NCBI RefSeq assembly: GCF_003918875.1
Contig: NW_025767179.1
Span: forward strand, 434,001 to 498,000
Direction of reading: 5' to 3'
Length of the DNA stretch: 64,000 nt
Source of the DNA: Haliotis rubra
Lineage: Eukaryota
Shown here piece after piece: positions 5,906 to 62,417 of this stretch. How positions within the stretch are numbered: position 1 is the stretch's first letter; each line of letters opens with the position of its first letter. A program made the translations under genes and the position numbers. A model generated the notes under the pieces. The model was not told the DNA's origin and made no database searches. It worked only from the letters and a program-made list of their open reading frames with translations.

Positions 5906-8681
5906 TCAGTTATTGCGTTTCCTTTTCCATTTATCGTAAGACATAAAGATAAACAACCCACACTGAAGTAAACCTGCACCGGAAACCATGTATACAAAGG
6001 CATCGGCACCAATCATACTCATCATCAGGCCACATATGGCGGGACTGATCAAAAAAGGCAATGTAGTCGGAAAATAGAACCACATTCAGAAATCGGGGTG
6101 ATCCATCCGTGTTCTCCTGTACCCATGCCAGACATCCAGGGAATAGGGGACCTATTCCGACAGCAAACAGAAGACTGTTTGTCCACATCATGATGATACT
6201 TGTGTCCTTAAATATGAGGAACAGAACAGATGTTACTCCGGAAAGCAAAACGAAGAGTACCATCACCATGTCAAGACTTAACCTAGCTGAGAGGACGACA
6301 CTGCCTAATCTGCTGAGGAGGGCGGTGGCAGAAAACACAGAATACATCATGGACATGTCGCTGAGACCCAGGTTCAGTTGAGTGCAAATTCCAAAGGTTA
6401 CGAAGAGCTCTTGAAAGGATACATTACAAGTAGAGCAGGTGAAGGTAAAGCACATTGTTAAACACATAAACATGGGACTTGTGCTTCTGTTGACTGCTGG
6501 TTTCCTTTTTATTGATGGGGGTACTTCCATAACGTCGCCTTCCTTCAAGATAGTATTGTAACAACCCATTAGGCCTGAGGACACAAGGAGACTTAATCCT
6601 GACATGATTATGAAGGGGTATTGTATCGTATTAAAACCGTTGCACCTCTGTTCTGAGTTAGGATGAGTTGTTGTCGTGTTGCAGAACGCTTCGTCCGCAC
6701 CAATGCCCTGTCGACTGTGCCTGAAGAGATTAGACACAATGGGGACACTTATTGTGTTAAGGGACGCTCCTGATTGTACTAAGGACACGACAAAAGCGTT
6801 GTCTGGCCATATGACGAAGCAGTGTAAAGTTCGAACTGAAAGAAAAGAGCAAAAGTGAATAAATTCAAGTAAGTCCAGCAACTGCAGGGTCACGGAAGGT
6901 ATGATGAAGTCTGAAATCTTAAAACATGTATGGTTACACAGCTGATTGAAGAAAAACTGATATGTATCGACCGATAATGTGCCAGCTCCAGTTGTCTATT
7001 ATGTGCATAACGAATCTCGATTTATCCTGGACCAAACAGAGACACAAGTGCCTGATGCTGTACGCTTTTCCCATTCCTGAAACGTTTATGGCAGGGATGT
7101 CTATCACTGAGTTCCAGCGTTGAATCCGTCTTGCAAGCTTTATGCTGCATATTGCATATATTGCATTTGTTTTCGTTCAAACTTACAAATCATGACTAAT
7201 CATCTGGTGTTCGATCTAATAATCCCAGGATACAGTGATGAAAAATACTACCAATCGGCGTCGGTGCCAGTATATCAGGAAAGGAATAGGATGATACATT
7301 AAAATTGCTACTTACTAAATATACACATTCCTGTACACCAGCCAGCAATGAGGAGCAAGAAGATGGTCAGCCACAAGAACGGAGACGTGGGTACAGCAGC
7401 AATAACCACAGCGTTCAATACCAATATTGTCGCCAGGAACAGACAAGTATCCATCTTGTCCTTGATGAAATGTACAGTCAGGCTACTACAGCACAGACCT
7501 AAACCATAGGCAAACAGGAGGGAGCTGGATGTCTTCAGGTCCACGCCCAGCAAACATTGGATGTCGGGTAAGGTTACTCCGATCAACGTTGTTGTCATCT
7601 GTCATGAAATATTTGATATCAATTAAAAGAAGAAGGCATGTTTCACTTCTCGGCAGGTGAGAGAGTTAAAATGTAATGTAGTATCGGCATGGTTTCACCC
7701 ACACAGTGAAAAGATCACATTTATGTGTACACAGTAATAAATCATAACTGCAAAGTCATGTCCAAATACAAACCTGTTTTACACATTTGAGAGAGTGAAT
7801 TAAAATTGCACGTCGGCATCATCAACACACTTGACTGACTGACTATATGAATTGCAACAGATAAAAGCACGGTCTTTAAGCCACCAGCAGGCAAAGGTGG
7901 TAAACCTTGCTGGATACCATAGGGACTGGCGCTTAAGAGTTGAAAGGAAAATGAAATGCCACTGTACGTGTTGTTATTTTTAGATAGATAAAATGATATT
8001 TAGAACATAAAGTATATTAAGTGCATAATGTTTACAATTATTTCAACCGCCTTACCGTAGCAAAGGCTGCACCAAACAGCACTGACGTGTAGATGATGCG
8101 GTTGAGGTTGGAGATATCCCTGCAGGAAATACAGATCCAATAATAATTTTCTTATATTCCACCCATTAGCGTATAAGAATAAGAGGCAGGGCAAAAGTGA
8201 GCTATGCACGTTCCCTAACGACATGTACCCATCTATAAACATATATCAATACCTAAATAAATACAATACAGATTCATGATTCAAGGCAGAAGAGTTCTGG
8301 CACTGAATGGTGACATACAGATTTTCTGCAAGTAATATGTTTGGGGCAGACAGCGATTCATTTGATTTTAAATCGAACTTATTGAGACAAAAGCATAGTA
8401 GTGGTTTCCCCACATAGCTGTAAGCAACTTGTACAGACAACACAGACATCAACATCAATAGGTACCTACCTAAATATATGCGTTTCAAGAGAGTATATTT
8501 TGACCAATCATATAAGACACTGCTACTCGTACTCGCTATGCAATACTGTTGGCATCAAATAATCTGATAATGGGCAAGGGTGTGGATATTTTTAGTGATC
8601 CCTGCGAATTGTCCATAATAATTTTTTATCCTGCAAAACAAACTCCCACCTCAGACCTTTCAGTTCTTACCTGGCTGTCAT
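5906..8681 (-). CDS. MFS transporter paralog 1 (MFSD4/NAGLT1-like), with +1 frameshift near the C-terminus
   Basis: Coding exons 8681-8671 (ATG ACA GCC AG|gtaag), 8119-8056 (DISNLNRIIYTSVLFGAAFAT), 7598-7316 (MTTTLIGVTLPDIQCLL...) and 6835-5906, all with GT-AG sites and consistent phases. Many hydrophobic helices, including AVGIGPLFPGCLAW. An A6 run at 6051-6056 has one base more than needed to keep the paralog 2 frame; removing it restores the C-terminus to TGA at 5906-5908. Confidence 0.75.
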
Positions 8682-13221: not shown

Positions 13222-14561
13222 TACTGAGTCAAAAAAGAAACATTCTTTCCTAAGGGCACTATAAAAGAACAATAGATGGTAAGATGGTTAAATTGTTATT
13301 ATTGTATTGCTGAGATCTGTGTGATGTACTCGATACACTGACAGTGCCATAATCAGTTCCATTAGGCTACACCGCCGTTCCAAAACATGGGTAAACAGAA
13401 CGTCAAGTCACAAGAATAAAAATGCGAAATTTTCAGTTCAATATCGTGTATGGCCGCCCCGCACATTCACCACTGCCAAACACTGTCTCCTCATCGACTG
13501 CCTGATGCTTGTGAACACGTGGTTGGGGATTCTGCGCCATTGCTCTTGCAAGGCAGCGCCAAGTTCCTGCAAATTCTGAGGTTGGTTCCTAAGACCACGA
13601 AGCCTTCTCCCAAGTGCATCCCAAACGTGCTCTATTGGATTAAGGTCAGGGGACCTCGATGGCCAGTCCATGACGTTGATTCCAGCGTTTTGAAGGAAAT
13701 TTCGTGTCAACATCGCGGTATGCGGCCTGAATCTGTCGACTTCCTGTACACAACATTGGGCATACCGTTCACGACGTCGTCTCCAGACTCTATGCCTGCC
13801 GTCCTCGAATCTGAGGGTAAACCTGGATTCATCGCTAAAGACGACTCGATTCCAGTCTCTCTGGGTCCATCGGAGGTGACGTTGGGCCCACAGCAGACGT
13901 TGACGTTGATGAAACGGCGTCAGTATTGGCCCACGATATGGACGTCGAGAATGGAGATTGGCAGCCCGCAACCGATTTTGAATGGTCTGTGAGGACAGTC
14001 GACCTCTAAACATCTCAGCCCTGGTTCGTGTAGCCGGCAGAAATCTGTCACGTAGGTGACGTAGGACGATTTGACGGTCTTCTGCTCGTGACGTCACACG
14101 TGGACGACCCGACCTTGGGCGATCAGACGTGGTGCCAGTTTGTTGTAGACGACCTCGCAAGTCATACACAGTACGACGGCTGCATCCCATTACTCTTGCG
14201 ACGTCAATAACTGATCTTCCCGCTTGCAACATGCCACGTTGCCCATTTGACAATCGTGGCATTTCAAGTACCGTTAGAACTGTGGTTTAAAAGTGTTTTT
14301 TCAATTCTTGAGGCCAATGCAAACACGTGCATATGAAGAAAACTTCGATGCGAAGATCACGTGATCGACTGCACGTGCAAAACCTGATTTGGCACTAACG
14401 TCATTTGCACGACGAATTGATGGGTTTGAGTGGGTTTTGCTAACGTTTTTCTAGAGTCGAAAGATAGGGATCCCATTTCGGATACATAGATGTATCATCA
14501 GAGAAAAATTATTCATTATTTTTCAAATTACATTTTGTGAAGTTTCTTTTTTGACTCAGTA
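13222..14561 (-). mobile_element. Tc1/mariner transposon with internally deleted transposase
   Basis: Perfect 20-bp TIRs tactgagtcaaaaaagaaac at 13222-13241 and 14542-14561, flanked by TA. ORF 13438-14262 has the HTH region, VVFSDESRF and WPSRSPDLNPIEHVW, but the segment carrying the second catalytic D is missing. Confidence 0.93.
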
Positions 14562-22827: not shown

Positions 22828-25800
22828 TCACATGTTATTGCGTTTCCTTTTCCATTTATCGTAAGACATAAACATAAACAACCCACACTGAAGTAAACCT
22901 GCACCGGAAACCATGTATACAAAGGCATTGGCACCAATCATACTCATCATCAGGCCACAAATAGCTGGGCTGACCAAAACCCCTATATAGTTGTAAAATA
23001 AAATCGCATTCAGAAACCAGAGTGACCCGTCCGAATACGCCTTCATCCATGCAAGAAACCCTGGGTATATGGGACCTATTCCGATAGCAAACAGAAGACT
23101 GTTTGTCCACATCATGATGATACTGGTGTCCTTAAATATCAGGAACAGAACAGATGTTATACTGGATAGCAAAACGAAGAGTACCATGATCATGTCAAGA
23201 CTTATCCTAGCTGAGAGGACGACACTGCTTAATCTGCTGAGTAAGATGGTGACAGAAAACACAGAATACATCATGGACATGTCGCTGAGACTCAGGTTCA
23301 AATGCGTGCGAATTCCAAAGGTTACGAAGAGCTCCTGAAAGAATATAAGAAGGGTAGAACAGGTGAAACTAAAACATATCGTTGAACACATAAACAGGGT
23401 GCTTCTGTTTGCTGCTGTTGTCTTATTCCTTAGTGGGGGTACTTCCATGACGTCACCTTCTTTTAGGATAGTATGGTAACAAAACATTAGGCCTGTGGCC
23501 ACAAGAAGACATAATCCTGACATGATTATGAAGGGGTATCGTATGTTGGTATTGAAACCGTTGCATCTCTTCTCTGAATTAGGAGGAGTTGTTGTCGTGT
23601 TGCAGAACGCTTCTTCTGAACCAGTGCTCTGTCGATTGTGCCTGAAGAGATTACCCACAAGTGGAACACTTATCGTGTTTAATGATGCTCCTGACTGTAC
23701 TAAGGCCACAATAAAAGCGTTGTTTGGCCATATGACGAAGCAGTGTAAAGTTCGAACTGAAATAAATAAATAAAGGTGTATCAATTTAAGTGATACCAGC
23801 AGATGTAGTGTCACGGGAGGTATTTATGAAATCTTACAATATGTATGGTAACACAACTGCATGAAAAAATACTGATGTGTATCGACCGATAATGCCAGCA
23901 CCACAGATGTCTAAAACCAGCGAGAGCCAATCTCGATTTCTCTTTGACTATAGATGTGATTCCAGCATATGAAACGTCACAGAACGAATTAATAATATCT
24001 AAAAAAGAAAGGGACATGATTGTATGTGTGGCAAGGGGTAACACTGCACCAAAGAGGCGTACATCAGACCGTTTTACCCGATGGAGAAGCATGCAACGTA
24101 TTTATCTTACCATGTTAAATGTACAAAATATCATTTTATTTTGTTTTGAAGATCGTTACCGACTAAATGACAGGTAAACAAAATGGCGTCTGCCTCTCGA
24201 CTGGATTTTTCAAATCAGTGAAACATTCCGACAAGCTTAAAACTGCTATAAAAATTGTTAACGATGTTTAAGTTGAGTGTGCAAACGATTCAATGTATAA
24301 AATAGTTTAAATAAAGCAGTGAAAGTCGGTAAAATAAATGCGTACATAGTGAACTCAAAAACAGCTAATCGAACGGTTTTCGAACTCCGGGCATTGCATG
24401 CGTCATATTATGACGTCATGCGATTGTGAGCGATACAGTTCCTCGGCGGAGAGTTTGGCGGTTACCGTGGCAGCGGGTAATATTTTTGACAAGTTGTCAT
24501 CCTCCTGGGAGGTGTGACACGGAGACTTGTTAAAGCGTCATTTACCAATGAAATTTACATGAAGGTAAGATAATGACATGTGTATCGACGAATAATGAAC
24601 CAGCACCGCCCTCCAGTTGTTTGTAATGATAAGAGCGAATCCAGGTTTATCCTTTGGGATGCAAATGCCCCATGATGTGACGCTTTGCCCACTCCTTAAA
24701 CGTTTCTGGCAGGCACTTATATTCGTGACTATCACTCATGACTATCATTCGTGAATCTCTCTTGCATGCTTTATGTTGCATATTGCATTAGTTCCCTTTC
24801 GTTGCTTTGAAACTTCCAATCATGACAAATCAGCTGGTATTCGAACTTATGATTCTTGAGACGACACTGATAAAAATTAGCACCAATCGATGTTGACAGC
24901 AACATTTCAGAAACATAAGTAGGGCTGCAGAACATGCTGATACATTAAATTGTATGCTTACCAAATACACAAATCCCTGTACACCAACCAGCAATGAGGA
25001 GCAAGAAGATGGTCAGCCACAAGAACGGAGACGTGGGTACAGCAGCAATAACCACAGCGTTTAATACCAATATTGTCGCCAGGAACAGACAAGTATCCAC
25101 CTTGTCCTTGATGAAATGTACAGTCAGGCTACTACAGCACAGACCTAAACCATAGGCACACAGGAGGGAGCTGGATGTCTTCAGGTCCACGCCCAGCAAA
25201 CACTGGATGTCGGGTAAGGTTACTCCGATCAAAGTTAACGTCATCTGTCATGAGATATTTAACATCAATAATACGTATACACGACATGAGAGTAAAACTG
25301 TTACGTCGCATCGACAGTTTAGGTATGCATAAAAAGAGTCATAACTGTAAAGTCAGAGGCAAAGGAAACCATCTTACATATGATTTAGCTGAAATCGTGC
25401 ATCATCATTGTTCCGAATCATATTTTGAATCATATACTCATTAGAACATTACAATAATATTTACAGCAGATTAGTGGGCGGACTATAAGCCACCATCAGC
25501 CAAGGAAGGTTACCTTGCTGGATATCTTGAGGACTTTTTTTTTGTTGACAGCACTGTGTGTTTTTAGATGAATGAAATATACTAAACGTATAATGTAACA
25601 GTTATATTTGGGATTACACTTTCTCAGTATAGTACAGATTCTAGTACTTTTTTGGGGTTGAGTCCCATCCGGGATTCGAACCCACACCCTCAGAGTCAGG
25701 CACCTAATCGCCAGCACACAAAGTCAGACGCCTAGACCGCTCAGCCACCGCGGCTCCCACAAAAATGGAAGTCGGACAACTGGTAGTCTAGACTGCAGAC

Positions 25801-29939: not shown

Positions 29940-31549
29940 TACACCTGGAACTTAATTAAGCACCCCTGATATATTTCATGATAGTAGAGCAACTGTTAAC
30001 CATCGTTAAACATGAATGATATCTCTGTATTACAACACATCTCTAGTAGTCTAAAAGGTGTTTCAGTTCCTTTGCACTCGTCACAACGCATCCCTTTGTG
30101 CACGTGAAGCATACAACCCACACTTTTCCCAAAATTCAGTTTCTCTGATATGCAATTTATGGGTATAAAAGCAGACAAATTTGTAACTGTCTCCATTAAT
30201 GAATACTGAAATGGCGAGGAGATGACTTTCTGAAGCACTAAGGTGGCAAATTGTAGGCATACATGCAACAGGCATGTCCTTCAAAGCTATTGGACGACAA
30301 CTGGGCTACAGTCACTCGGTCATCAGCCGACTTGTCCGAAAACATCAGATGACAGGAGATGTGAGAGATCGTTCAAGGCCTGGACAACCCAGGAAGACAA
30401 CGGCCCGTGATGATCGCAGCCTGGCACGTCTGGTAAGGCGAGAACCCTTTGCCACAAGTTCGGGTTTGAAGCGCCTGTGGTTACCCTACAGACAATTATC
30501 CACCAGAACCGTCAGAAATCGCCTTAGGGCACTTGGTATGAGGTTCAGAAGAGTCATCAAACGTCCTGCTCTGTCTGATCTCCTTAAGAGACGACGTCTG
30601 GAGTGGTGTATGGCCCGTCGGCAGTGGAACCTGAGGACATGGAGGAGGGTCCACTGGTCAGATGAGAGCAGGTTCCTCCTCCACGTTACAGATGGTCGAA
30701 TGAGAGTGTGGGGGCATAAAACACTGCTTACGTGCCCAGGAATATCCACCCTACTGTTCCTTATGGTGGAGGATCGGTTATGATCTGGGTTTGTCTTTCA
30801 CACGACTGTAAACTTCAAATGGTGACTGTCCGAGGACATCTTAATGGTCAGCAGTACATCCGGGATATTCTCCATCCAGTTGTCGTGCCTCACTTTGACA
30901 ACCATCCGTTGGCTACTCACCCGATATTCATGGACGACAACGCCAGGCCGCATCGTTCACGTGCTGTGACCGCACATCTCCAGAATGAGGCTATCATGGC
31001 ATTACCTTGGCCAGCAATGAGCCCCGATTTGAATCCTTTGGAGCACATCTGGGACTTTCTTGGACGCCGTGTGAGGTTGAGAGAACCCCCCTCTCCAGAA
31101 TCTTGCACAGCTGGAAGCTGCTTTGCATGAAGAATGGCGGCAATTGCCACTTGATCGTATCAGAAGGTTTACCAGTAGCATGAGGAGAAGGATTCAAGCT
31201 GTCATCCAAGCACGTGGGGGGATACACCCGATACTGATGCCAGACCCATCAGATGTTAGCATGTGACATTCCTTGTGCATCATTTCTTGTAATAGTCAGC
31301 CATTGACAATGCTACGACCATACTTGTTCAGTGACTATTTTCATCAAAAATCAATAGTGACCAAATCACATTGGTTACGCTATTAAAACAACACGAATTG
31401 GAATCATTGTCTTGTTTTTCATTTGCCAATAGATCGTATGTTTCACAATAGCTAAGGTTCCACTATCTTTGGAATAGTGAGAAAGTTACAGCAAGTTTTG
31501 TTTCTCATCATCCAGAAAATAGGGGGTGCTTAATTAAGTTCCAGGTGTA
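29940..31549 (+). mobile_element. Full-length defective Tc1 (DD34E) transposon
   Basis: TIRs tacacctggaacttaattaagcacccc at both ends with TA flanks. Transposase about 30211-31237 has an early TGA and frameshifts. Motifs WSDESRF, GGGSVMIW and MDDNARPH-SPDLNPLEH, with 34 residues between D and E. Confidence 0.93.
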
Positions 31550-34199: not shown

Positions 34200-37100
34200 A
34201 TTCTCTTCTTCTCCTGTTGTTTCTGGTATTGTTGAAATTCTTGGACGTAATTTAACGAAGAAGAATGTTTGGCGAGTGTTTCACCAAGCTTATTGGCAAT
34301 GTTAGACTTACCAGTTAATATATTGTCACCATCCTTCAGATGGTGTAGATTTGGAACCTTTGCCTTTAATTCATTGGATCATGTTCCATACCTTCGAAAT
34401 TGGTGTACGGGAATTTATCTTGGAAACATACTTCCTCCAAGACTGACGCTTATTCTGCTTAAATGCGCGTCGAGCCTTGGATGTAAAATTTTAACTTTAT
34501 CTAAATTATGGACTATAGGATGTCTACTTCTTCCTACTGGCCAGTTTACATTCATTATTAAACCATGGTTTACGAATATGTGGAATTGCAGAGGACTTGG
34601 GTATACTTTGATCAGCAATGTCATTGAGCATATCTGAAAATGACTGTATAGGATCTGTGTTATATAATGACCAATCAGCCCTGGCGAAGTTCCTTCTGGA
34701 TAAAGGTGGATCATCTCCAGGGCTTATTGTTTTGAGAATGGTGGGGAAGTGATCACTCCCACATAGGTCATCATGGACCATCCATTCAAATTCATTATAT
34801 AAAATAGAGTCAACAAGTGATAGATCCAGGGAAGAATATGTTCCCGTAGCTGGATGTAAATAAGTGTCTGAATCGTAATTGCAGATACATAAATTATTAC
34901 AAGAAATGAATCCATCTATGATTTTACCTTTATTATTTGTATGGACACTTCCCCAAAGCGGGTTGTGTCCGTTCAGATCACCCATGATAATACATGGTTT
35001 CTGGAATCTGGTCATACAGTTTTTGCAGATCTGACAGTCGGATATCAGAAGACGGTGGGATATACAAGCTGCACAGCGTCAACGTAATGTGTAAAGTCAG
35101 ACGAACAGCTACAGCTTGGAGATTAGTATAACGAGGGGCAGGGATATGTATAATACCCTGCCGGACCAAAATAGAAACACCTCCAGTTGCTCTATCTCCT
35201 GGAGGGGAAAAGAAATGAAAAACACTGTATTGTCTTAAGTTGAACGTATTTGTATTTTTAAGAAATGTTTCTTAAAGAAAAAATGTTGATGGATGAAAGT
35301 CCTGTGTCAATAATTGAATTTCATTAAAGTTATTTTAAGACCTCTGCAATTCCACTGAATTAGATTGGGCAATTGAGTCATGGTGCCTCAATTGGTGATC
35401 GCCCTCGTGAATGTGAGGAGGAGCTATTTCTCTGCCTGTCCTGTGAAGATAGGGTAACCTCCATGTCTAGAGGTCCAAATGGGTTCTCTAGAGGAACCAC
35501 TAAAGGTGAAGGGAGGGTTGGTGTCTGTTCCTTATTCTTTTTTTCCCTTTCGTTTTCGACAGGTAAAGTGTGTCGGGCTGTTTGTCAGACGTTTTCGATT
35601 GTGTCTCAGTCTGAGATCCAGATGATGCTGTAGTGACTGTGGAAGTCGATGGTGTGACTGGGGGGGAAGTCGATGATTTGATTGAAGCTGAATTCACGGG
35701 GTTTTCTGATTTGACCCACGTCAGGTCAGTCTGGCATGTCACAGAGGCTTTTGCGACAGAGCGAGATACTGCAGCAGAGTAGGTGATGTTTGATCGAGTT
35801 GGGCGCTCAGTTAATAATCTTTTGGCGCTTTAGTTTCATTATTTGTGACTCCTTTTGCCACACTGGACAGTATTTAGAGGAAGCACCATGTGGGCCATGA
35901 CAATTTGTACACTTAAATTCTTTATCGCAGTCTGTGGTTTCGTGACTGTCATCACAGCGATAACAGATCACAGATCCGCGACAAGAATTCGAGCCATGCC
36001 CAAATTTCTGGCATTTGTAGCATCGGAGTGGACTTGGCATATATGTTTCCACTCCGATATTGGAATACCCTGCTTTAATTGATTGCGGAAGTGATGTTCG
36101 CGCAAAAGTCAAGAGATAAGTGTTAGTGTTTGTGAAGATGACATCTTTTTTAATTTTGAATTGTTTAACATCTGTCATACTCTGATCTTGTAGCTCTGCT
36201 GCAATTTCCTCCCCTGACATGTCGGACAGACAACGAGTCCTGTCACGTATGATGCCTCGACACGTGTTTAATGTTCTGTGTACGGACACAGTAACGTCAA
36301 TATTTGCAAATGTTCGGATTGACAAAAGATTGAGTGACTGCTGTCTCCGTGCACACTCTACTAGAAGCGAGCCACTACGGAGACGGGTAACGTTTTTAAC
36401 ATCCCCACACATCCCAGATACAGCTTTGGAAATAGCAAAAGGATTGAGTTTTATGGGGAGATAATCCAATGCTTCTATCACCAGGAAACGAACCCAGGAA
36501 TCATCATTTGTAGACATATTTCGTAGATCGACAGTTTCAATTCTTCGTTTCTTTTCATTTCGAGTTGAACCAGGCATTTGTTGTGTCATGATGAAAGGAC
36601 AAATGTTTCAGCACCCATGCTCCCCACCAACCACGGAGTGTGAACAAGGATAATGTCATGTAGTACCGGATCTCCGACATGCTGACACCAGGGATACAGG
36701 GGTGTAATACTCCAGAGAATATGACACAAAAAGCAGTATTTGTATACCTGATTAAATGTCAGGGTGGTTCTGCCCATGGCAAGAATTAGGATACATGCTG
36801 AATTTGGAGGTCAAAATCACTAGATTGGCCCATGAGCCACCACCTTCTGGCATAGGACTCTAGGCAATTTAATATAGCAATAGTTTTTATATTACAAACA
36901 TAAATTACCAAGACCCAGTAATAGGTTAAATGTGCAAGAATAGTCACCATGCACAGGGCCTGGCGTGACCAGCCGATTGATAGAACCGGGCCAATTCTAC
37001 CATCCGTCTAGGTGAAGTAAGGGCCAAAGTGGTGTGTTGGGCAAAAGGAACACGGTTCCAGGCTCCCAGTGCCCTCAACCACCAGAATCCCGTCCTCCAC

Positions 37101-39210: not shown

Positions 39211-40863
39211 TACTCGAATTCAAAATTAGATAGGCACTGTAATCAATTCATTACAGAAATGGACATAATAAGCGGATCAAAAACACTTTTCGTATACAAT
39301 ATCTTGACACATCAGTGAATAACTCAGCACAATTCCAAGACATGACGTGAACGTTTGCAGTCCATTCAGACTCTTGACTTCAGTATCTAGTGTGACCATC
39401 ACGAGCGGCAATAACTGCAGCACAGCGTCTATGCATGGAGTGTTAACTAGCGTAATATATCCCCAAACCGGAAGTTTACATGCTTCGAATGGAACAGCGC
39501 ATGACCGGATGCCTCAGAGTGGATATTATGGACTGTCGAGCACAAGCACATGGCGTGCAATGTTGTATCTGGTATTCATGAACTGAATAAAGCCAATTTA
39601 ACATGGAGTGCACAAATCAATTGATGAAGACCATTGGCACCTTGAACCACACTCTGAGAAAAGCCTGGCGCAATAAGTCGGCTGTGTTCGGCCTTGGTGT
39701 GACATTATTCAGTCTCCTCTGAATTTCATCCCAAAGATGTTCAACTCGGTTTAAATCAGGACTATGCATAATGTTGACACAGTTCTGCTTTAGGAAGTCC
39801 CGTGTAGCTCTGGCAGTATGGGCCCGGGCGTTATCATGCTGGAAATTGTTGTTCCGGTGACGTGCGAAATGTGGTATGACGTGGGGTCTGAGAGCTTGGT
39901 CGATGTAGCGCTGTGGTGCCGCCTCCTCTCCCTGGACCAAGGTTCTGGAACACCACAGGACCCACTCTTTGGTTCAGGCCTATTCCACCCCATACCATGA
40001 TGTTTGCACCTCCCCATGAGTCTCTTTCCATAACAGATTGGTCTGACTTACGCTGACCACGTCGTCGCCATATTCTTGTTCTGCCATCTGCAGTTGATAC
40101 GCAGTACCGACTCTCATCTATGAACAGAACAGTTCTCCACTGCCTGTATCGCCAGTTTTGGTGTTGTAGGGCAAACTGTAGACGTTCACGCCGATGACGA
40201 GGGGTGTGGATAGGTCCGCGGTAAGGTCTACGGCAATGGAGGTTCCCGCTGTTAAGACGTCGGCGTACTGTATCAGTGCTGATTGGTCTTCCCTGTGTTC
40301 CCACTGTCTGGCGTGCTGCTTTGGATGCCTGCATGAAGGGATTCTGTACATAGTGTCGCACAAAATGGCGGTCTTGTCGTCTTGTGGTCACCCGTTGTCT
40401 GCCAGTACGGGGGCGATCATTTGTGGTTTTGGTGGCCCGGAAACGTTGCTACAGCCTGTTGATGGTCCGAATGTTGACCTGGAAGTGATTGGCAACGGCT
40501 TGTGCAGTGTGGCCAGCTTCAAGTCTTTCTAGCGCCTGGTTCCTCTGGGCTGTCGTGAGAAGGGGCATTCTGCTGACGTTGTAATGTGAATGTTTCAATC
40601 AGGTTTGGGGGTGCATGTTATAGGGCTGATCCTTGTGAACAGCACGTGCTGCATGAGTTGCATGAAAAACATGGAGAACACCGTACCGAGATCAGGTTGC
40701 GTTTTTGAGACCATTTCCTGGGTTCCATTCTGAGTTTGGGAAGGAATGGCTTTGCTCAGGTTGGAGATTTGTCAAAAATATACAATCAAAACATTAAATG
40801 AGTTTACAGTTATCTGTTTCTGCGAAGGAAAAGCCCAAACTGACGTTTCTTTTGCTACTCAGT
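39211..40863 (-). mobile_element. Degraded Tc1 transposon
   Basis: Transposase from ATG 40568 through FIDESRY, GGANIMVWGGI, FQHDNARAH and SPDLNRVEHLW, ending ...DGHTRY* near 39380. It is frameshifted and interrupted by a small insertion. The termini are uncertain. Confidence 0.85.
39443..39601. mobile_element. Small MITE-like insertion with 9-bp TSD inside the Tc1 transposase
   Basis: catggagtg at 39434-39442 and 39602-39610. Imperfect inverted termini ttaactagc / gccaatttaa. Removing the insert rejoins the transposase C-terminus. Confidence 0.7.
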
Positions 40864-44617: not shown

Positions 44618-47600
44618 CTTCAATCTTTAATTCAATCTTTATTTCGTACTGAAGAGGCCACAGGCCTTTAGTACATATACATATATAATGGGGAATTACA
44701 TAAATAAATATATTTACATTACAGTGATAAAACTTTTGTTCTATACAACATTGCAGTGTGGATGAACATGGCAAGATTTTGTAATATATTTTGATTTTTA
44801 CTGCTTATAAGGGTAGAGAATTTTATGATGCTTGGATGGATATAGTAATATCTTTTAATGTATTTACAACGTATTGAATTATATGATGGACAGATGAGGA
44901 GAAAGTGATATTCATCTTCAATTTCATTTAAACGACAAAGTGTACATATTCTCTCTTCTCTTTTAACATTTTTATATCTGCCGCTTTCAATCAACAAATC
45001 TTGCGATGAGGATGAACATCGGAATCTTGCTTCTAGTGATCGCCGTAAAATTTAGCGGCAAAAGATCGCAACAAATTATATTAACAGAACACCATTAAGT
45101 ATTCAACTTCATTGACATACATCTTTTTAACTTTTGAATAGTAAAATGGCATTTGTCCGTTGTCAACGAGATGGAGACGCCACTGATTTTCTCACAACCA
45201 TTCTGTTTGAAGATATATGTCTTTAAGTCTTATGGTTAACGACTGAATGATCACTGACGTTGTGATTCTACATGATTGTGCATTCACGAAACGTCTCACC
45301 ATGAAGCCAATTAGTAGAAGATATAAGAAGTTCTGTAACATGGTGATGTCCTAAATTTCTTTATCCATTTAAGTATACTTCATCATACAATAACAAACAT
45401 CATATTATAAAAAGATTTCGTCTTATGGTTAACGACTGATGAATGACGTATGAAGGCATATTTAACAGTTTTAACCAATATTTGATAAAAAATTCGGTAA
45501 CCGATATGAAGGCATTTATGCTTGTAAACAAGTGCATTGGATATCTGCCACATTCACCGTAAACTACTGCATTAACTGTATTCAATTTAACACCAAGATA
45601 TTTTTGCATGCATACAAGTGTATTCTTTCTATTTGATGAAAGTCTGCTAATCCCCAGATTTCTGCTCCGTACGTCAAAATTGGGTTTATCTTTGCATCAA
45701 AAATCTTAAAAAAGGTTTTGTAACTAATATCTCCAAGTGTACTTACTGTCTTCATAATACCAATAAGTGCCTTTTGCGCTTGGAGCGAAGCATATTTGAC
45801 ATGCATGTTCCAAGACAAACCATTGGTAAAATACAATCCCAAATATTTATAATAGCTAACACAGTCTAGATGTATACCATTAAACAACCACTTTTCTTTT
45901 TTAGAAAGTTTACCTCCCTTTTTAAAGACTATGATTTTTGTTTTCTCTCTGTTTACTGTTAATTTCCATTTATCGCAGTAATGTTCGAGTTCATTTATTT
46001 GATTTTGGAGGCCACTAACGGTGCTTGAAAACAACACAATGTCGTCTGCAAACAACAGAAGGAAGATTTTAAATATTTCTGGGTGAAGTTGTATGCCACT
46101 TAAGCAATTAGTTTCGATTTGAACAGCAAGCTCATTGATGAAAAATGAAAACAGGAAAGGAATAAGTATACATCCTTGCCTTACACCAAGTTTTAATTCG
46201 AACGTTTCCGAAAATTCTTGATTATTTTTAACACATGCCTTCACGATCATACATATTAGTCAAAAGTTTACTCATTTTATTACTGAGACCATGATATTGA
46301 AATAGAGACCAAAGCTTGTTGCGTTGGACAGAGTCAAAGGCTTTCGCAAAATCTACAAATAGGGCATATACTTTTCCTCCTTTTAAATTCAAATATCTCT
46401 GTATTATACTTTGTAAAATAAACATGTTATCAACAGTGGTATATCCATGTCTAAATCCAGCTTGCGATTCATTTATCTTATCCATTGTATCTCCCCAGCT
46501 TACAAGTCTCTTATTAACTATAAAAGTGAAAATTTTACTAAATATACTAAGTAATGTTATTCCTCTATAGTTATTTGGGTTATTTGCATCACCATGTTTA
46601 TGGATCGGAACAATGATACCAATCGTCCAACATTTTGGGAAAGTACCATTTTCCAATATGATATTAAATAGTAGTTCTAGGTATGGAGCGATAAGGTCGG
46701 ACGAGTGTTTAAAGAATTCTGATATCATGCCATCAAATCCTGGTGATTTGTTTGATTTAAGATTGTCAATACTTTCAAAAATCTCTTCTCTAGTGATTGG
46801 TGAATCAAGTATATCTGCCGTAAGTTCTGAATTTTGCCGGCTCAGGTTGGTTTGCTCTGTATTGTCATGATAATTATGGTCATTTTTATTATCTACTCTA
46901 TGAACACCACAAAAGAGTTGCCCAAAGTGTGCCTACCAATCGTGTATCTGAATATTGTTTTGCCTTACTTGATGGTTATTTAAAGTTCAGACAAGAAATG
47001 TTTGGAATTAGATATGCTATTTTCTATTGTTATTCGTTTTTCTCTAAAATAGTCAATACGGTTTTTTTTGCAAAGTGCATTATATTGGTTTCTTACGATG
47101 CAATATTGATCAAATGAATGCTTGTCTTTACATTTCCGGAACTTATTGAGAAATTTGCATCTTTCGGTTTTTAGTTTTTCGCAATCTGAGTCAAACCAAC
47201 TTTTCAAGTATGCTTTTGATTGACCAACTTTTTTCTCATACAAGAAGCCGCTGAGCAGATCGCATCTGTCATATATCGTATACTTTCATCTATACTAGTG
47301 AAAGCACAATCAACAGATTTATCTAGCAATTCCTGAACGTTTTCAGATAACAAATTTTCCTGAACTGTCCTGACTTATCATTATCCCAAGTAAACCTGTA
47401 CGTAATTTCAGATCTTTTATCATGTGTATCAGCTTTTCTATTATGATTTGATTTTATTCGTAATATAATGGGAAGATGGTCTGATTCTATGCGTGATTGT
47501 ATACTGAAATCATTTACATAGTCAAATAATGCTGCTGACGAAATAACATAATCAATAACACTGGTACCATTCAGACCTATGTAAGTAAAATCTCCGAGTT

Positions 47601-49697
47601 GTGCATCACTGCCACAACGACCATTCATAATATGAATATTAAAAACGGAGCACATGTCAAGAAGAGTTTTACCAAACCTGTTTATAACTTTGTCGGCGGA
47701 GAACCGTTTAAGATGGAAATAGTCTATAAGAAAGTCCCAGTACGAATGGTTTTGAGTTTCAGTGTATTCCAGCAGATCATCCTCGATAAAATCGGGGTCT
47801 ATTCCCGTACGCGCATTGAAATCTCCGCCACAGAAGATATAGCAGTCTGGTACAGAAGAAACAATTAATAATAGGTTATCCTGAAATAAATTTACACCAT
47901 TATTACATAGTGGTGAGTATTTATCATACCAAGTGGATGCTTCAGGCTGTACATATACACAAGAGTACAAACTATCTTTGTCTAGGTGAAACAGTGTATG
48001 GTCAAACATGATAAATATAGCGTTTTCTGTTACTTTAGACCATTTCATGTAATCATAAAACTCTTTCTTTATCAGTACAACGATACCCCCGGAAGGTCTC
48101 CCCTTATTAGATATTTTTTGTGCATTTTTTTCAATCAACTTAAAATCACTGAAAATATTTTCTAGGTCTAAGTCAAGCGACCAAGTTTCAGTAATACCAA
48201 TTATATCAAGTGATTTGATATAATCTACGAAACAAGCGTCTGTAAGTTTTTGCACGATACCGGAAATGTTCCAGAAAATAAAATTGACTATTTCACAAAC
48301 ATTTTCACAATCGTCAGTCTCATTCACAACACTTTGATGCGTCAAAGAACGTCTCACATGATCCTGGCCCTGGCCACCTCCCTAGCGGGTGTGGTCTCTG
48401 TCAGTGGGTCGCGATGACGATCTCAGACCCTGTCTCGTGCCCCCGCGGTCTCGGTCTCCACGATTGTCCGACCTCGGTTTACTCCGTGTGTCCCCAGATC
48501 TACCTTGGTCTTCCTTAGGGTCCTGCATTATCTTGCCCCCCTTATAGTAGAAGCGGGTGTCGGGGTGTGCATCTCTCAGGCGGTTGAGTTCTTTTCGCTG
48601 ATAGGTGGTGAGATCATTGGCTATACCAACACCCTGCTCTTTAAGTACACTCCTCAATTTGACAGAATGCCACTTATCTTCCCAGTGGTTCATACGGACG
48701 ATAATCGGTCTTGTCTTATCGCTCTTTTTGCCGATCCTATGGGCTCTCTCAATGTCTCTAGGTGTAAGGGGTGGGAGATCTTTAGTCACTCTCGCTTTAT
48801 TGAGAAAAATATCGATCACTTTGTTCTTGCTTTCTGTGTAGGTCTCATTATCATCAGTTTCCTGGACATTATATAACACAATGTTATTCCTCCTGCTACG
48901 CTGTTCCTGATCCTCTAGATGTGTGTCTAGATTGTCTAATTGTGCCTCTATATCTGTTGTTTTATCATTTAAAGTGTCAATATCCATTCTAATGACATCT
49001 TGTTCTTGTTTATTGGTGTAGATTTCTTCTCTTAGTTCATTGATGTCTAATTTTATAGATTTTATGTCCTCTTTAACCGAACAAATATCTTTAGAAAGTC
49101 TATTTTCCGAGTCCTTTATCTGCCGGAGGATTACCCTCTGTACCTCGTCTAAATCGGTGGTAGGTCCCGGGTTTGTCTCGACATCTCCAGAGAGAAGAAT
49201 AATGGGTGATCTGACACTATTCGCAGGGAGGGGTGGGGGTAGGAACAGACGAGTACGATCGATACTGAGCCGGGGTGTGCTATCCGTGACGTTACTGCTT
49301 GGACACAAATGTAAACAAACAGTTTCTGGATGGCAAAACTCACTCGGGTAGTCTTTGTAGCTCGCACACTGTTCAATATATCGAATCAGGGAGAATGATA
49401 AGATGAGATGCACAGACAAGAACACAAAACATGCGTTGAGTCGGAGCGGCATGTCAGAGCCAGCCGTGAACGGTGTATACCTGTCAACATGGCTGATGTG
49501 TCGGGTACCACTAGGGTGTGAAAAAGTCCCAATCCTTGCTCTGTAGAGCACTATATTTATCATTTTTCACATGAAACTCTTCACTGATCCCTTATGGATG
49601 TATACGATATAGTTTTAGATTCTGGTGATGTGTGGATTATTATTTACCCTATATTTTCCCTGACTGCTCTTTTTCCGTGACTCGTCTCTAGGGGCGC
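44618..49697 (-). mobile_element. Near full-length CR1/L2-group LINE (ORF1 open, ORF2 frameshifted)
   Basis: ORF1 49563-48382 (coiled coil, RRNNIVLYNV, HRIG). ORF2 pieces: APE 48357-47323 (WNISG, TETW, GDFNAR, SDHLP), RT 46728-45582 (NYRGITLL, FVDFAKAFDSV, GVRQGC, LFADD) and C-terminal CTLC...HFLLIC 44997-44719. The 3' end has a stem-loop, AATAAA and attgaa repeats at 44618-44675. The 5' boundary is approximate. Confidence 0.92.
49162..49200 (-). other. 2A-like (StopGo) ribosomal skipping motif in LINE ORF1
   Basis: ILLSGDVETNPG|P matches the D(V/I)ExNPGP consensus. Confidence 0.85.
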
Positions 49698-50799
49698 ATA
49701 ACTCTTCATTTGATGGTTTGTTATTTAACGTCACACTCAACAATATTCCAGCTATATGGCGGCAGTCTGTAAATAATCGAGTCCGTATAATTAAATCCAG
49801 TGATCAACAGCATGTGCATCGATCTACGCAAATGGAATACGATGACATATGTCATCCAAGTCAGCGAGTCTAACCATCCGATCCCGATAGTCGCCACTAA
49901 CGACAAGCTTGTTTTCCAAAACAACAGTGATACATACTAAACAAATAATGCATTAAGTTGAAAATCAGTTTTTCTTCTTCTAAATGTTTTAATACAACAT
50001 TCTAAAGCCCCCCTATTTGTAACAGTTTTTTGAAAAGTCTTCGTGGGTAGGTAACTGATTAAAAGTTACGTGCATATTTCAACAGTAATTGAACTTCATA
50101 GCATGCAACATTTGGTCAAGTGGTTCTTACAATTCTACATATTGTTAGTTTTTTCAATTTTAGTATTATTCAAACTCCCAGATGGATGACATTTATTGGA
50201 TACCCTTACTCCAATAATGAGAGGGAGAAGGTGCCTACTAGACAGTTCATTGCGGTTTCGCCAGTTATTTCCCTGCACTGAGCTTACCGTGTATTCTTTA
50301 TCAACAACACTGTAAGAGAAGTTATCGCACATGACAGACAAAACATGGTTCAGGTGTAAAGCAGGACATGAATTTGAACTAATAAGGTTAATTCTGATTC
50401 AAACATGTCTTTGTATTTTAAATATGCTCGGTAAATTAACCACATTCAAGTAAGGGTGCGAACAGAGTGTCATCTGCAGTGCTTGATACATCACAATAGT
50501 TTTCAGGAGTTTTTGTGTTCGACTATTCAGCATCTCCTCAGCCAGTGTGAAAGCCGTGAACGTTAGATAAATATATTTAATTGACGCTTCTGTCGACACA
50601 AATTGGCGTAAGCAAAATATCAGAAAAACTCAGTTAACTACCTTCACGTCGACAGTGGGTTTGATTTAATTACGTAGGTGACTTGTGTGTTACTTGTAAA
50701 GGCTATTGGTGTAAACGTATGTTTAAGCAGGGATGAAAGTGTACACACATATAAGGTATATACGAACCTACAGCAAGTTACTGCAACCACCACCACTAT

Positions 50800-60058: not shown

Positions 60059-62417
60059 GGACGACAGTATCTCCAACGCAAACCGCATCATCTACACGGT
60101 GTTGTTGTCTGGCACAGCCTACGTTACGGTAAAGTAACTGAAACATTATTGTTCTATTTCGTCGTAGCTGTTTGAACACGTGTGTTAAAGATATAACACA
60201 GCGGCAAAGCATTTACAATAATCTTGAGACATCTTTGCTGAAAGCCCTCGATTGTAGCATTTCCACTATATCGTGAGAATGTGTTGATAGGTCACTCTCA
60301 AATAGTGATAATAAACGTGTTCGTAAAATGGTGAGCGCACTTCGTTAAAAGCTGACGGCAAAGTATACAAGCAGTTACTAGTCTGGCTAGTATTTAGATA
60401 TTTGCATAACGATTCAGAGACAGAAACGTTTTGCCCGTGAAGATTCGGATTAGAATTGGTCTTCAGTAACCCATGCTTGTCGCAAGAGGCGACTAACGGG
60501 ATCGGATGGTCAGACTAGGCTGACACATGTCGTCGTATTCCAACTGCGTAGAGTGATGCTCATGCTGTTGATCACTGGATTGTCTGGTCCAGACTGGATT
60601 GTTTATAGACCGCCGTCATATAGCTGGAATATTGCTGAGTGCGACGTAAAACAACATGCTGACGAACTGTTTTCTTCTTTGCGTAGACATCTTCAGCATC
60701 ATTGATCGGCCTCTCCCTACCTGACATCCAGTGTTTGCTGGGCATCGACCTCAAGGTAGCTAGCTCCCTTCTGTTTGCCTATGGCCTAGGCATGTGCTGC
60801 AGCAGCCTTACAGGGCACTTCATCAGAGACAATGTAGATACCACTTTGTGCATGGTGGCCACGTTGGTGTTGAACGCTGTGGCTATTGCTGCAATACCAA
60901 TATCTCCGTTTGTGTGGCTCACCTTCACCCTGGTCCTCATAGCTGGATGGTGTACGGGTATAGCGTCATTAGGTAAGTTAATGAATCATTGGGAATACAC
61001 CCTCTAAATAAATTGTTGTCCTCCTCCAGTGGCTTAACATTTGTGTGCATTATTAGACGACAACATACCACTCACATTCAATGACTTTCCCAACACCAGC
61101 ACCTCTCCCTCTCCTCCATATTAAGTTTGAATGACTCAATATCATAGAAATAATCCTCAGAGCTATCTGCATATATCTATTTCAGTGCGCAAAGGTACTG
61201 TAAGTCCCCATGGTCCCTAGTATGGTGATCTACCTTCAGTTGTTGGCGATCTATAGCCTATTTTTATATTACATTGTCCTCTATAGTTAAAATGTTTTAG
61301 ATTTAATTACTAGTTTTACATTGATATCTGTGATTTTCTAGTTGTTTTACTGTCCTTTGTTGACAGCTATTTAAATTGATCACCTTGTTTTCATCGCTGT
61401 ATGGCTGTAATATTGACGATGCGATGTAAAATTTTAACTCACTCACTCACTATTTCAGTGCGTGTATTACAGTGCTACATCATATGGACAAACAACTTCT
61501 TTGGAGTATTCTGCATTGCGTTAGGAACGTCGATCAGCATGATCACAACTCCTCTGATGGCCAAACACTTCATAGAACATCGTCGGTTGGTTGCTGTAGA
61601 TGCCTTGTTAAGTAATGTGACAAGATCAATTGAAGAGAAGAGGTGTGACGGCTTAAACACCACCATACGATATCCCTTCATAATAACATCAGGGTTCGGC
61701 CTTCTTCTGGCCACAAGCCTCATGTGTAGCTACAATACGTTCTTGCAGAAAGGCGACGTGATGGAAGTAACAACAACGAATAGGAAACCAACAGTATATA
61801 GAAGCCCCAGTCTAATGTTCATAACATTCACCATGGGTACAGCCTTCATGAGCTCGGCCAGTCTGGTATCATTTCTGGAGCTCTTTGTTACTTATGGAAT
61901 TCGTTGCCAACTGCACCTGAGTGTCGGCGAAATGTCTCTTCTGGCTTCGGCCTTCTCTGTAGGAGTTTTCATTACCAGATTAGTCGGTGTCTTTTTAGCA
62001 GATAGAATTAGAATTGAGATCCTGGTACTGTCCTATGTTCTTCTCGTTAATGTAGCATCTGTTCTGTTCATTCTGTTTAAAGACACAAACATCACCATGT
62101 TGTGGACAAACTGTATAATGTATGCACTTGGGTCAGGATCGATGTTCCCCGGTCTTCTGGCGTGGGTACAGAAATATTCATATCGTTCACCACAGTTCTT
62201 GAATGTTATTATGTTTTTTGATTATTTGGGTTCGTTAGTAGTCCCAACGTTATCGGCTTTGCTTATTGGAATGTTTGGATCAGATGCCTTTATCTACACG
62301 ACGGCAGGTATCGCTTTTTCCCAACTCCCGCTTTTTATTGGATTGTGGTGCGTTAGTGTTGAAGTGAAAAATGAAGCCGATCTGGACAACGTACACCCTT
62401 TGATAAGTGATCAATAG
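60059..62417 (+). CDS. MFS transporter paralog 3 (more divergent; first coding exon not located)
   Basis: Exons 60059-60128 (DDSISNANRIIYTVLLSGTAYVT), 60687-60972 (...LIGLSLPDIQCLLGIDLK...) and 61459-62417 (VRVLQCYIIW...). Exon structure and phases are the same as in paralogs 1 and 2. Confidence 0.78.
60434..60655 (+). mobile_element. SINE-like repeat (family A), representative copy
   Basis: gtcgtaagaggcgactaacgggatcggg...gaccgccgccatatagctggaatattgctgagtgcggcgtaaa. Other copies lie at about 2835-3000, 16898-17108, 17447-17640, 26757-26975, 38815-39040 and 49715-49910. Confidence 0.8.
61190..61449 (+). mobile_element. SINE-like repeat (family C) at the last-exon acceptor of MFS paralog 3
   Basis: ccatggtccctagtatggtgatctaccttcagttgttggcgatc...(ACTC)n, with a 13-bp TSD ctatttcagtgcg. 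Other copies lie at about 2480-2780, 9117-9381, 11990-12290 and 56975-57310. Confidence 0.85.

Follow-up and report, generated by a model that had tools for sequence, protein, structure and literature searches.

Comparison of the ORF1-ORF2 junctions in a group of related LINEs suggests that ORF2 is probably made as an ORF1-ORF2 fusion, by programmed readthrough of a UAG codon that ends ORF1 in the frame of ORF2. Readthrough would account for all of the features that recur at these junctions, namely one frame, one stop, the use of UAG or UAA and never UGA, a G-rich context, an element at a fixed distance, and open linkers that lack a start codon. The copy described here lies on the minus strand of the window, by which we mean the whole 64,000-nt stretch of DNA that was analysed, and is 94.9% identical over 5092 columns to another copy in genome G000. 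It is an APE-type non-LTR retrotransposon (LINE), as is evident from the APE endonuclease and reverse transcriptase (RT) of ORF2, the chaperone domains of ORF1 and the 3′ end. ORF2 matches Pfam Exo_endo_phos and RVT_1 above cut-off and has human L1 ORF2p as its closest solved relative (E 6e-35), and the copies are dispersed and share a conserved 3′ end that carries AAUAAA and short repeats. By motifs and size, the window LINE presumably belongs to the RTEX / Proto2 group. The source label of a related ORF1 fragment is Haliotis rubra, which makes an abalone-like gastropod the probable host. Its ORF1 frame (394 codons from stop to stop) and its endonuclease frame (352 codons) are one and the same frame, and several frameshifts and stops break ORF2 further downstream. 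The features of this copy are as follows:

44632..49709, minus strand: full-length but decayed LINE copy of family F1, about 5.1 kb, with APE endonuclease and RT (Pfam Exo_endo_phos, RVT_1)
48385..49563, minus strand: ORF1, 393 aa counted from the AUG (sequence, profile and structure matches)
49162..49185, minus strand: 2A-like (StopGo) core DVETNPGP, upstream of the coiled coil (sequence)
48382..48384, minus strand: UAG that terminates ORF1 in the ORF2 frame; predicted site of readthrough (family alignment)
48366..48381, minus strand: conserved 16-nt element 3′ of the stop (29 family representatives)
48365..48376, minus strand: first hairpin of a first-pass annotation, UGGC-cagg-GCCA, of which only a 3-bp core can form clade-wide
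48354..48359, minus strand: out-of-frame AUG-UGA (start-stop) within the linker (sequence)
48332..48347, minus strand: second hairpin of the same annotation, family-specific (sequence, older copies)
48325..48327, minus strand: codon 19 of the ORF2 frame, GTG in the window copy and ATG in most F1 copies
44719..48381, minus strand: ORF2 frame, with a 36-codon linker, endonuclease from W37-N38, RT and a C-terminal Cys/His motif (sequence, Pfam)
44646..44674, minus strand: 3′-UTR stem-loop with core AGGCC-UGU-GGCCU at 44667-44655, upstream of AAUAAA (complementary to the junction element)

The first-pass annotation, made from the window alone, had read the junction as CGC-UAG (48384-48382), with GGA GGU GGC CAG GGC CAG GAU CAU GUG continuing the same frame, and the sequence agrees. 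It had also placed the first methionine downstream of both WNISG and TETW, which holds for the window copy: counted after the stop, WNISG is at codon 37, TETW at codon 64 and the first Met at codon 112 (104 from the GUG at codon 9). As a property of the family, the AUG-less ORF2 does not stand. Codon 19 is ATG in 10 of the 14 F1 copies that cover it, GTG in three (the window copy included) and AGG in one, and in the contigs of run X1 the ATG allele has a depth of 970 of 1005. Three possible RNA runs gave almost no coverage of the element. Initiation at the GUG of codon 9, which the annotation had offered as an alternative, finds no conserved codon there. The stop itself is well kept, being TAG in 12 of 16 F1 copies, TAA in two and deleted in two, with no sense substitution. 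Of the observations named beforehand as speaking against readthrough, a sense codon at the stop is absent from F1, while an AUG before WNISG is present at codon 19 in F1 and at codon 13 in its sister F3, so reinitiation at an AUG could operate in these two families. In a copy seen once (L008/L202, G000:C2091, about 890650), a 15-nt in-frame deletion removes the UAG, and ORF1 and ORF2 form one open frame of 1209 codons.

The comparison was extended to the related families of the genome. A protein search of G000 gave 1243 candidates, the best 150 of which were scored, and the 100 regions fetched yielded 147 distinct copies, which fall into 28 clusters when grouped at 80% nucleotide identity; the metagenome contig L191 is one more family. 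Another search, started from the most divergent family and with 40 regions fetched, added seven families (the N families), grouped by eye, two of whose junctions (N5, N6) were read by eye in decayed copies. The total is 36 families, 35 in G000 and one on the metagenome contig, and as they share ancestry the counts below are not counts of independent events. The families have endonuclease domains that are only about 35-67% identical to one another, and still share the stop, its reading frame and the 3′ context. The junction codon is TAG in 31 of the 36 families, TAA in four, TGG in one and TGA in none; the TGG is copy-specific, since a relative 87% identical to the copy that has it (L153) carries TAG. 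For 33 families the ORF1 stop is TAG in 28, TAA in four and TGG in one, again with no TGA (F2, F18 and L191 contribute three more TAG), whereas the ORF2 stop of the same elements (n=17) is TAA in 11, TGA in five and TAG in one. Similarly, a G follows the stop in 28 of 33 cases for ORF1 versus 1 of 17 for ORF2. One divergent G000 copy (L300) had no clear junction on inspection, and in F4, five of ten copies (L027-L030, L185) have one-base indels in or beside the G run at the stop, which may reflect assembly error or a slippage hot spot.

To avoid circularity, the junction was also located without its own sequence, using an ORF1 protein motif and the W-N of the endonuclease as anchors. Both anchors were found in 83 of 148 copies, in frame with each other in 53 and out of frame in 30. 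Exactly one stop separates them in 43 of the 53 in-frame copies, none in two, and two to four in eight; we read the 30 out-of-frame copies and these eight as products of decay or assembly indels. The single stop is TAG or TAA followed by GG in 41 of 43 cases, against a background of 66 of 2997 TAA/TAG triplets (2%) in the endonuclease region. Of the 16 families with at least three junction-bearing copies, 14 most often have an in-frame, stop-free linker, of 15-49 codons, and the other two (F14, F28) are too decayed; across families, linker length ranges from 14 to 49 codons.

Start codons are scarce in these linkers. Only F1 and F3 among the 14 in-frame families have a Met before W-N. For example, a copy of F15 (L218) has an open ORF2 of 1157 aa with its first Met at 231, and a copy of F19 (L222) one of 1146 aa with its first Met at 109, in both cases with a single stop before the frame and the Met after the catalytic W-N; a further long open ORF2 (L295) likewise has one stop ahead and is Met-free up to the catalytic W-N. 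The linkers of F16, F19, F20 and F24 also lack in-frame CUG, GUG, ACG and UUG. Where AUG does occur (F1, F3, F8, F28, L191), its positions are unrelated, and comparison of 22 linkers found no AUG or near-cognate codon conserved in kind or position. Over 23 linkers, 26 ATGs are out of frame and five in frame. Weak near-cognates are present in most linkers, with AUU, AUC and AUA occurring in AUG-free ones. The representatives used for these linker counts, and for the sequence logo, are the best copies of their families, with the junction located by motif.

Conservation 3′ of the junction is confined to the stop and positions +1 to +16, and drops beyond. The element consists of a 6-nt spacer (GGR-NGU), GGCC at +7 to +10, and then GGYC or GCCC. 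In 29 representatives, the conserved bases are G+1 (26), G+2 (27), G+7 (28), G+8 (28), C+9 (26), C+10 (28) and G+13 (26), and position -1 is biased to A (21 of 29). The conservation is at the nucleotide level, as glycine codon usage demonstrates: codon +1 is GGG in 19 and codon +3 is GGC in 24 of the 29 representatives, while the 176 glycine codons of the endonuclease include only 23 GGG and 22 GGC. The first triplet is otherwise GGA (4), CGG (2), GGT (2), GTA (1) or CAA (1). According to the accessible text of a 2026 review (PMC13517186), type III readthrough sites are UAG-GGV, UAG-GUA or UAG-GAU and generally need a downstream structure. Most of the 29 representatives have this context, and the seven deeper families often deviate. 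Chosen by protein similarity alone, the latter begin with CAG, GAC, GAA, GAU, CGG or GGG, and retain the stop, six nucleotides and GGYC at +7 to +10. With the first six bases altered and GGYC kept in the deeper families, the invariant part is the stop, the 6-nt spacer and GGCC. An Rfam search over the element gave no match at E 0.1.

No strong local RNA structure stands out at these junctions. Both hairpins of the first-pass annotation can be drawn at their positions in the window copy, but they are not borne out as family-wide structures: in four junction fragments, folding is no stronger than in shuffled sequence (z +0.38, +0.01, -0.23, +1.36), and 30, 60 and 100 nt after the stop of the 29 representatives have mean z of -0.01, +0.04 and +0.15, with no strong local fold (at 60 nt, z is below -2 in 3 of 29). 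The 3-bp core of the first hairpin, from +7, is possible in 28 of 33 families with a mean pairing probability of 0.22, and the second (48347-48332) shows one compensatory change and two broken pairs in older copies. By crude stem enumeration, none of 34 junctions had an H-type pseudoknot of the MLV kind, with its start 8 nt behind the UAG, that beat shuffles. Of the label 'MLV-like', then, the first six bases and the purine-rich spacer hold, while the pseudoknot is absent from those junctions and the hairpins are weak or family-specific.

A more distant partner is suggested by a stem-loop with core GGCC-NNN-GGCC, which is conserved at the ends of the LINEs, in the 3′-UTR of 30 families; one variant of its core has 2192 matches in G000 versus 23 for a control. 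In F1 the junction element can pair with this hairpin over 10 bp and one bulge at a distance of 3.5 kb. Within the whole element, the 3′-UTR hairpin is the best partner of the junction in 21 of 29 families, compared with 35 of 174 dinucleotide shuffles, or 52 of 174 when +7 to +10 were kept, where it should be borne in mind that GGCC is palindromic, so that any two such motifs cross-pair, and that the families are kin. Cognate junction/3′-UTR pairs beat permuted pairs (p 0.0007-0.02 by window) and flanking control windows do not (p 0.18-0.81), the windows having been picked after the complementarity was seen (six, five and six in three tests, controls included). Within clades, covariation gave p 0.04-0.23, and the cognate pair was favoured in only 4 of 12 informative sister pairs. 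The pairing is suggestive, and we treat it as a lead and not a result.

A missing AUG does not by itself force readthrough, because translation of mammalian L1 ORF2 is considered to be AUG-independent (PMC5009743). In the same manner, ribosomes might terminate at the UAG and then start again within the linker, at some weak or arbitrary codon, positioned by the 16-nt element and yielding a separate ORF2p, which we judge rather unlikely. This would follow the precedent of L1 (PMC5009743, PMC5972666) and recall the requirement of SART1 for RNA structure downstream of its stop (PMC5009743, PMC5972666, PMC10275272), insofar as these partly available sources describe them; no uncleavable fusion would be needed, and most linkers offer weak near-cognates. 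What L1-type reinitiation explains is the missing AUG only. The shared frame, the exactly one stop, and UAG-G with never a UGA are left unexplained, the 22 linkers conserve no start codon, and the 26 out-of-frame ATGs (five being in frame) would divert scanning ribosomes. In F1 and F3, the main route to ORF2 could instead be ordinary reinitiation, at the in-frame AUG of codon 19 or 13, with the readthrough context as an inherited remnant or second route. In both families this AUG predominates, at a sufficient distance before W-N for the whole endonuclease to be made, but the two positions differ and are non-homologous, F1 is polymorphic (GTG in three and AGG in one of 14), an out-of-frame AUG precedes each (nt +23 and +20), the full stop context is retained in both, and their closest relative, F4, is without the AUG. 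We consider this improbable.

Other explanations dispense with recoding. TAG|G would suit a splice acceptor, and GGGYGTGGC, which occurs in the junction element of most F families, resembles what we take to be a KLF/Sp GT-box, so the motif could be a 3′ splice site or a DNA element driving a subgenomic ORF2 RNA. Against splicing, there is no pyrimidine tract (38% Y and 14% T in the 25 nt upstream) and four families have TAA, hence no AG. The GT-box is missing from the deeper families, which yet retain the stop, six nucleotides and GGCC; the element without the preceding T-A has 2 matches in G000 versus 56 for the TAG form (a slightly wider pattern); and a subgenomic RNA would still require a start codon. 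These readings strike us as very improbable. Least credible of all, and to be given almost no weight, is the alternative raised in the first-pass annotation that the UAG is a nonsense mutation in the single long ORF of a dead copy. The window copy does have other lesions, and single stop-less copies exist (L008 by in-frame deletion, L153 with TGG), but 14 of 16 F1 copies retain the stop, none with a sense substitution, it is common to 35 of 36 families, and L153 has its TAG-bearing relative; the alignment of F1 led us to reject it. The annotation's main claim, that ORF2 is reached through UAG-G readthrough and not through a chance lesion, therefore gains strong comparative support, mostly from families other than its own, while the codon-19 AUG of F1 tells against it there.

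Under readthrough, most ribosomes would stop at the UAG and release the L1-type RNA-binding protein, and a few percent, by analogy with MLV, would insert an amino acid and continue through the linker of 14-49 codons into the endonuclease and RT. This would set a high ratio of ORF1p to ORF2p, much like that of gag to gag-pol. The GGCC at +7 sits where viral stimulators begin, and its candidate partners are the 3-bp local hairpin, the 3′-UTR hairpin or a protein. The linker AUG of F1 and F3 may permit reinitiation in addition. Evidence against readthrough includes the linker AUGs of F1, F3 and L191 and the copies that are out of frame or have several stops. In addition, we know of no protease in LINEs that would free ORF2p from the fusion, and no structure stands out here of the downstream kind on which type III sites generally depend.

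ORF1 comprises, in order, a hydrophobic N-terminal part, the 2A-like motif, a coiled coil, an L1-type RRM, a C-terminal domain and an R/G/S-rich tail. Its profile matches human L1 ORF1p (E 4e-9), and its structure model (pLDDT 93) has L1 ORF1p as all of its top 11 Foldseek matches. A 2A-like motif of this type is present in 21 of the 40 long copies examined, with the core GD(V/I)ExNPGP. The part of ORF1 before it (49563-49190) opens with a motif found across families, M-x(5,6)-W/Y-R-x-x-I-G-x-F/Y/H, and a hydrophobic stretch, and would become a separate released peptide if the predicted 2A were active. Many eukaryotic 2A-like peptides do not skip, according to reports available in part (PMC13405545, PMC3708506), and the first of these places a 2A upstream of the ORF1p coiled coil in limpet and ticks. 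A bolder proposal, that a single mRNA of the LINE undergoes two recoding events (2A skipping within ORF1, then UAG readthrough into ORF2) with readthrough gated by the 3.5-kb junction/3′-UTR pairing, seems doubtful to us. Were it true, enzyme would be made only from RNAs with an intact 3′ end. The pairing used for translation would also exclude the hairpin needed for retrotransposition, at which reverse transcription would start, making a tombusvirus-like switch.

Relatives outside G000 are few. The metagenome contig L191 has an ORF1 of 392 aa followed by TAG-GGA-TTG-GGC-CAG, with an AUG at codon 7. An intact two-ORF LINE with 37% RT identity (L313:240-4637, JBEVXV010000967.1) lies on a contig in a Sedimenticola MAG, presumably host DNA; its ORF1 ends in TAG-GAC in frame with an ORF2 of 1204 aa whose first Met is at 211, and this single copy is without the 3′-UTR hairpin. 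LINE RTs are likewise present in bacterial MAGs at L314 and L315. Nine of ten metagenome loci are distant (24-33% identity), and none of the eight of these nine that were examined has an open ORF1 in frame. A search of viral contigs found no relatives, and among genome contigs of other species none matched the endonuclease profile and three loci had RT. With tree alignments projected on one reference, the junction-bearing families are monophyletic in an endonuclease tree (SH-aLRT 94, a quick method, without the N families) and in a whole-ORF2 FastTree (1.0). A tree of RT alone did not recover this, as Met-starting metagenomic proteins mix with the N families.

Several other features of the window were recorded. 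Positions 49705-49690 and the extreme 5′ ends of F1, F3, F7, F12, F15 and F19 have in common a TTA(T/C)..GCCC-like motif, a possible internal promoter or target-related feature. The 5′ end of the LINE adjoins a very high-copy short repeat (49911-49710, depth in millions), probably a SINE. Open frames at 5931-6995 (minus strand), 22828-23823 (minus strand) and 61380-62417 (plus strand) are related to one another, encode 331-354 aa rich in hydrophobic segments, and resemble transporter-like paralogues. By eye, we take the regions 13438-14286, 30226-30783, 39834-40448, 34524-36607 and 234-839 to be Tc1-like transposase frames, a second LINE with a zinc-knuckle ORF1, and a GIY-YIG-like frame.

How LINE ORF2 is translated is an old open question, and the studied cases, L1 and SART1, use reinitiation. 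The lineage described here provides dozens of natural junction variants, in some of which a long ORF2 is open without a usable AUG; together with the defined 16-nt element, they make readthrough directly testable. If the proposal is right, LINEs would share the retroviral way of making gag-pol, ORF2p would remain attached to a subunit of the ORF1p trimer, and annotation of ORF2 from its first Met would truncate the endonuclease.

Readthrough is a known kind of recoding and has been proposed for LINEs, apparently without a test. Our literature search, from whose scope Repbase and subscription journals fell out and which single-sentence mentions may escape, returned no demonstration of readthrough in LINEs and no description of this signal. 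One sentence in a study of Paramecium tetraurelia suggests readthrough between the ORFs of Group 3 non-LTR elements (Guerin et al. 2017, PMC5405496). These form a ciliate-specific clade, for which the text available to us gives no signal analysis or experiment, whereas here the group is an animal one, with UAG-G and a 16-nt element over 36 families. Mammalian L1 and SART1 also have a bicistronic RNA and the L1-type ORF1p fold, and L1 ORF2 is made at low level without a strict AUG; they differ in using termination-reinitiation (a 63-nt spacer and a UAAUG overlap, respectively), with no conserved leaky-stop context described for them in the portions available (PMC5972666, PMC5009743, PMC10275272). 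The 2A-like peptides of other non-LTR elements share the GD(V/I)ExNPGP motif (Odon et al. 2013, PMC3708506; PMC13405545), and as far as the accessible text of those reports goes, the pairing of a 2A with a readthrough junction is not described there, both of which are predicted in the LINE group.

Further parallels are viral. Much like Moloney MLV (MoMLV), the LINEs have a structural-protein ORF followed by an in-frame polymerase ORF. The MoMLV signal is given as UAG GGR NGU CAG, with functional spacer bases G1, G2, G5, U6, C7 and A8, in the part of the review available (PMC13517186); UAG-GGR-NGU is common to both, with G1, G2, G5 and U6 kept in 26, 27, 22 and 20 of 29 families. C7 and A8 are replaced by G7 and G8 in the LINE group, and the window copy matches six bases and then diverges. 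The LINEs also differ in having no H-type pseudoknot from G9, no fusion-processing protease and, in four families, UAA. In tombusvirids, according to the partly available reports (Cimino et al. 2011, PMC3234231; PMC3159437), the readthrough stimulator for the RdRp pairs over about 3.5 kb with a 3′-terminal replication element. The tombusvirids have a large proximal stem-loop and mutational proof, while the LINE group has no large stem-loop and a covariation that is unsupported given the kinship of the families. In both, however, UAG is followed by GGR, and the pairing over about 3.5 kb in the viruses parallels the junction/3′-UTR complementarity of the LINEs.
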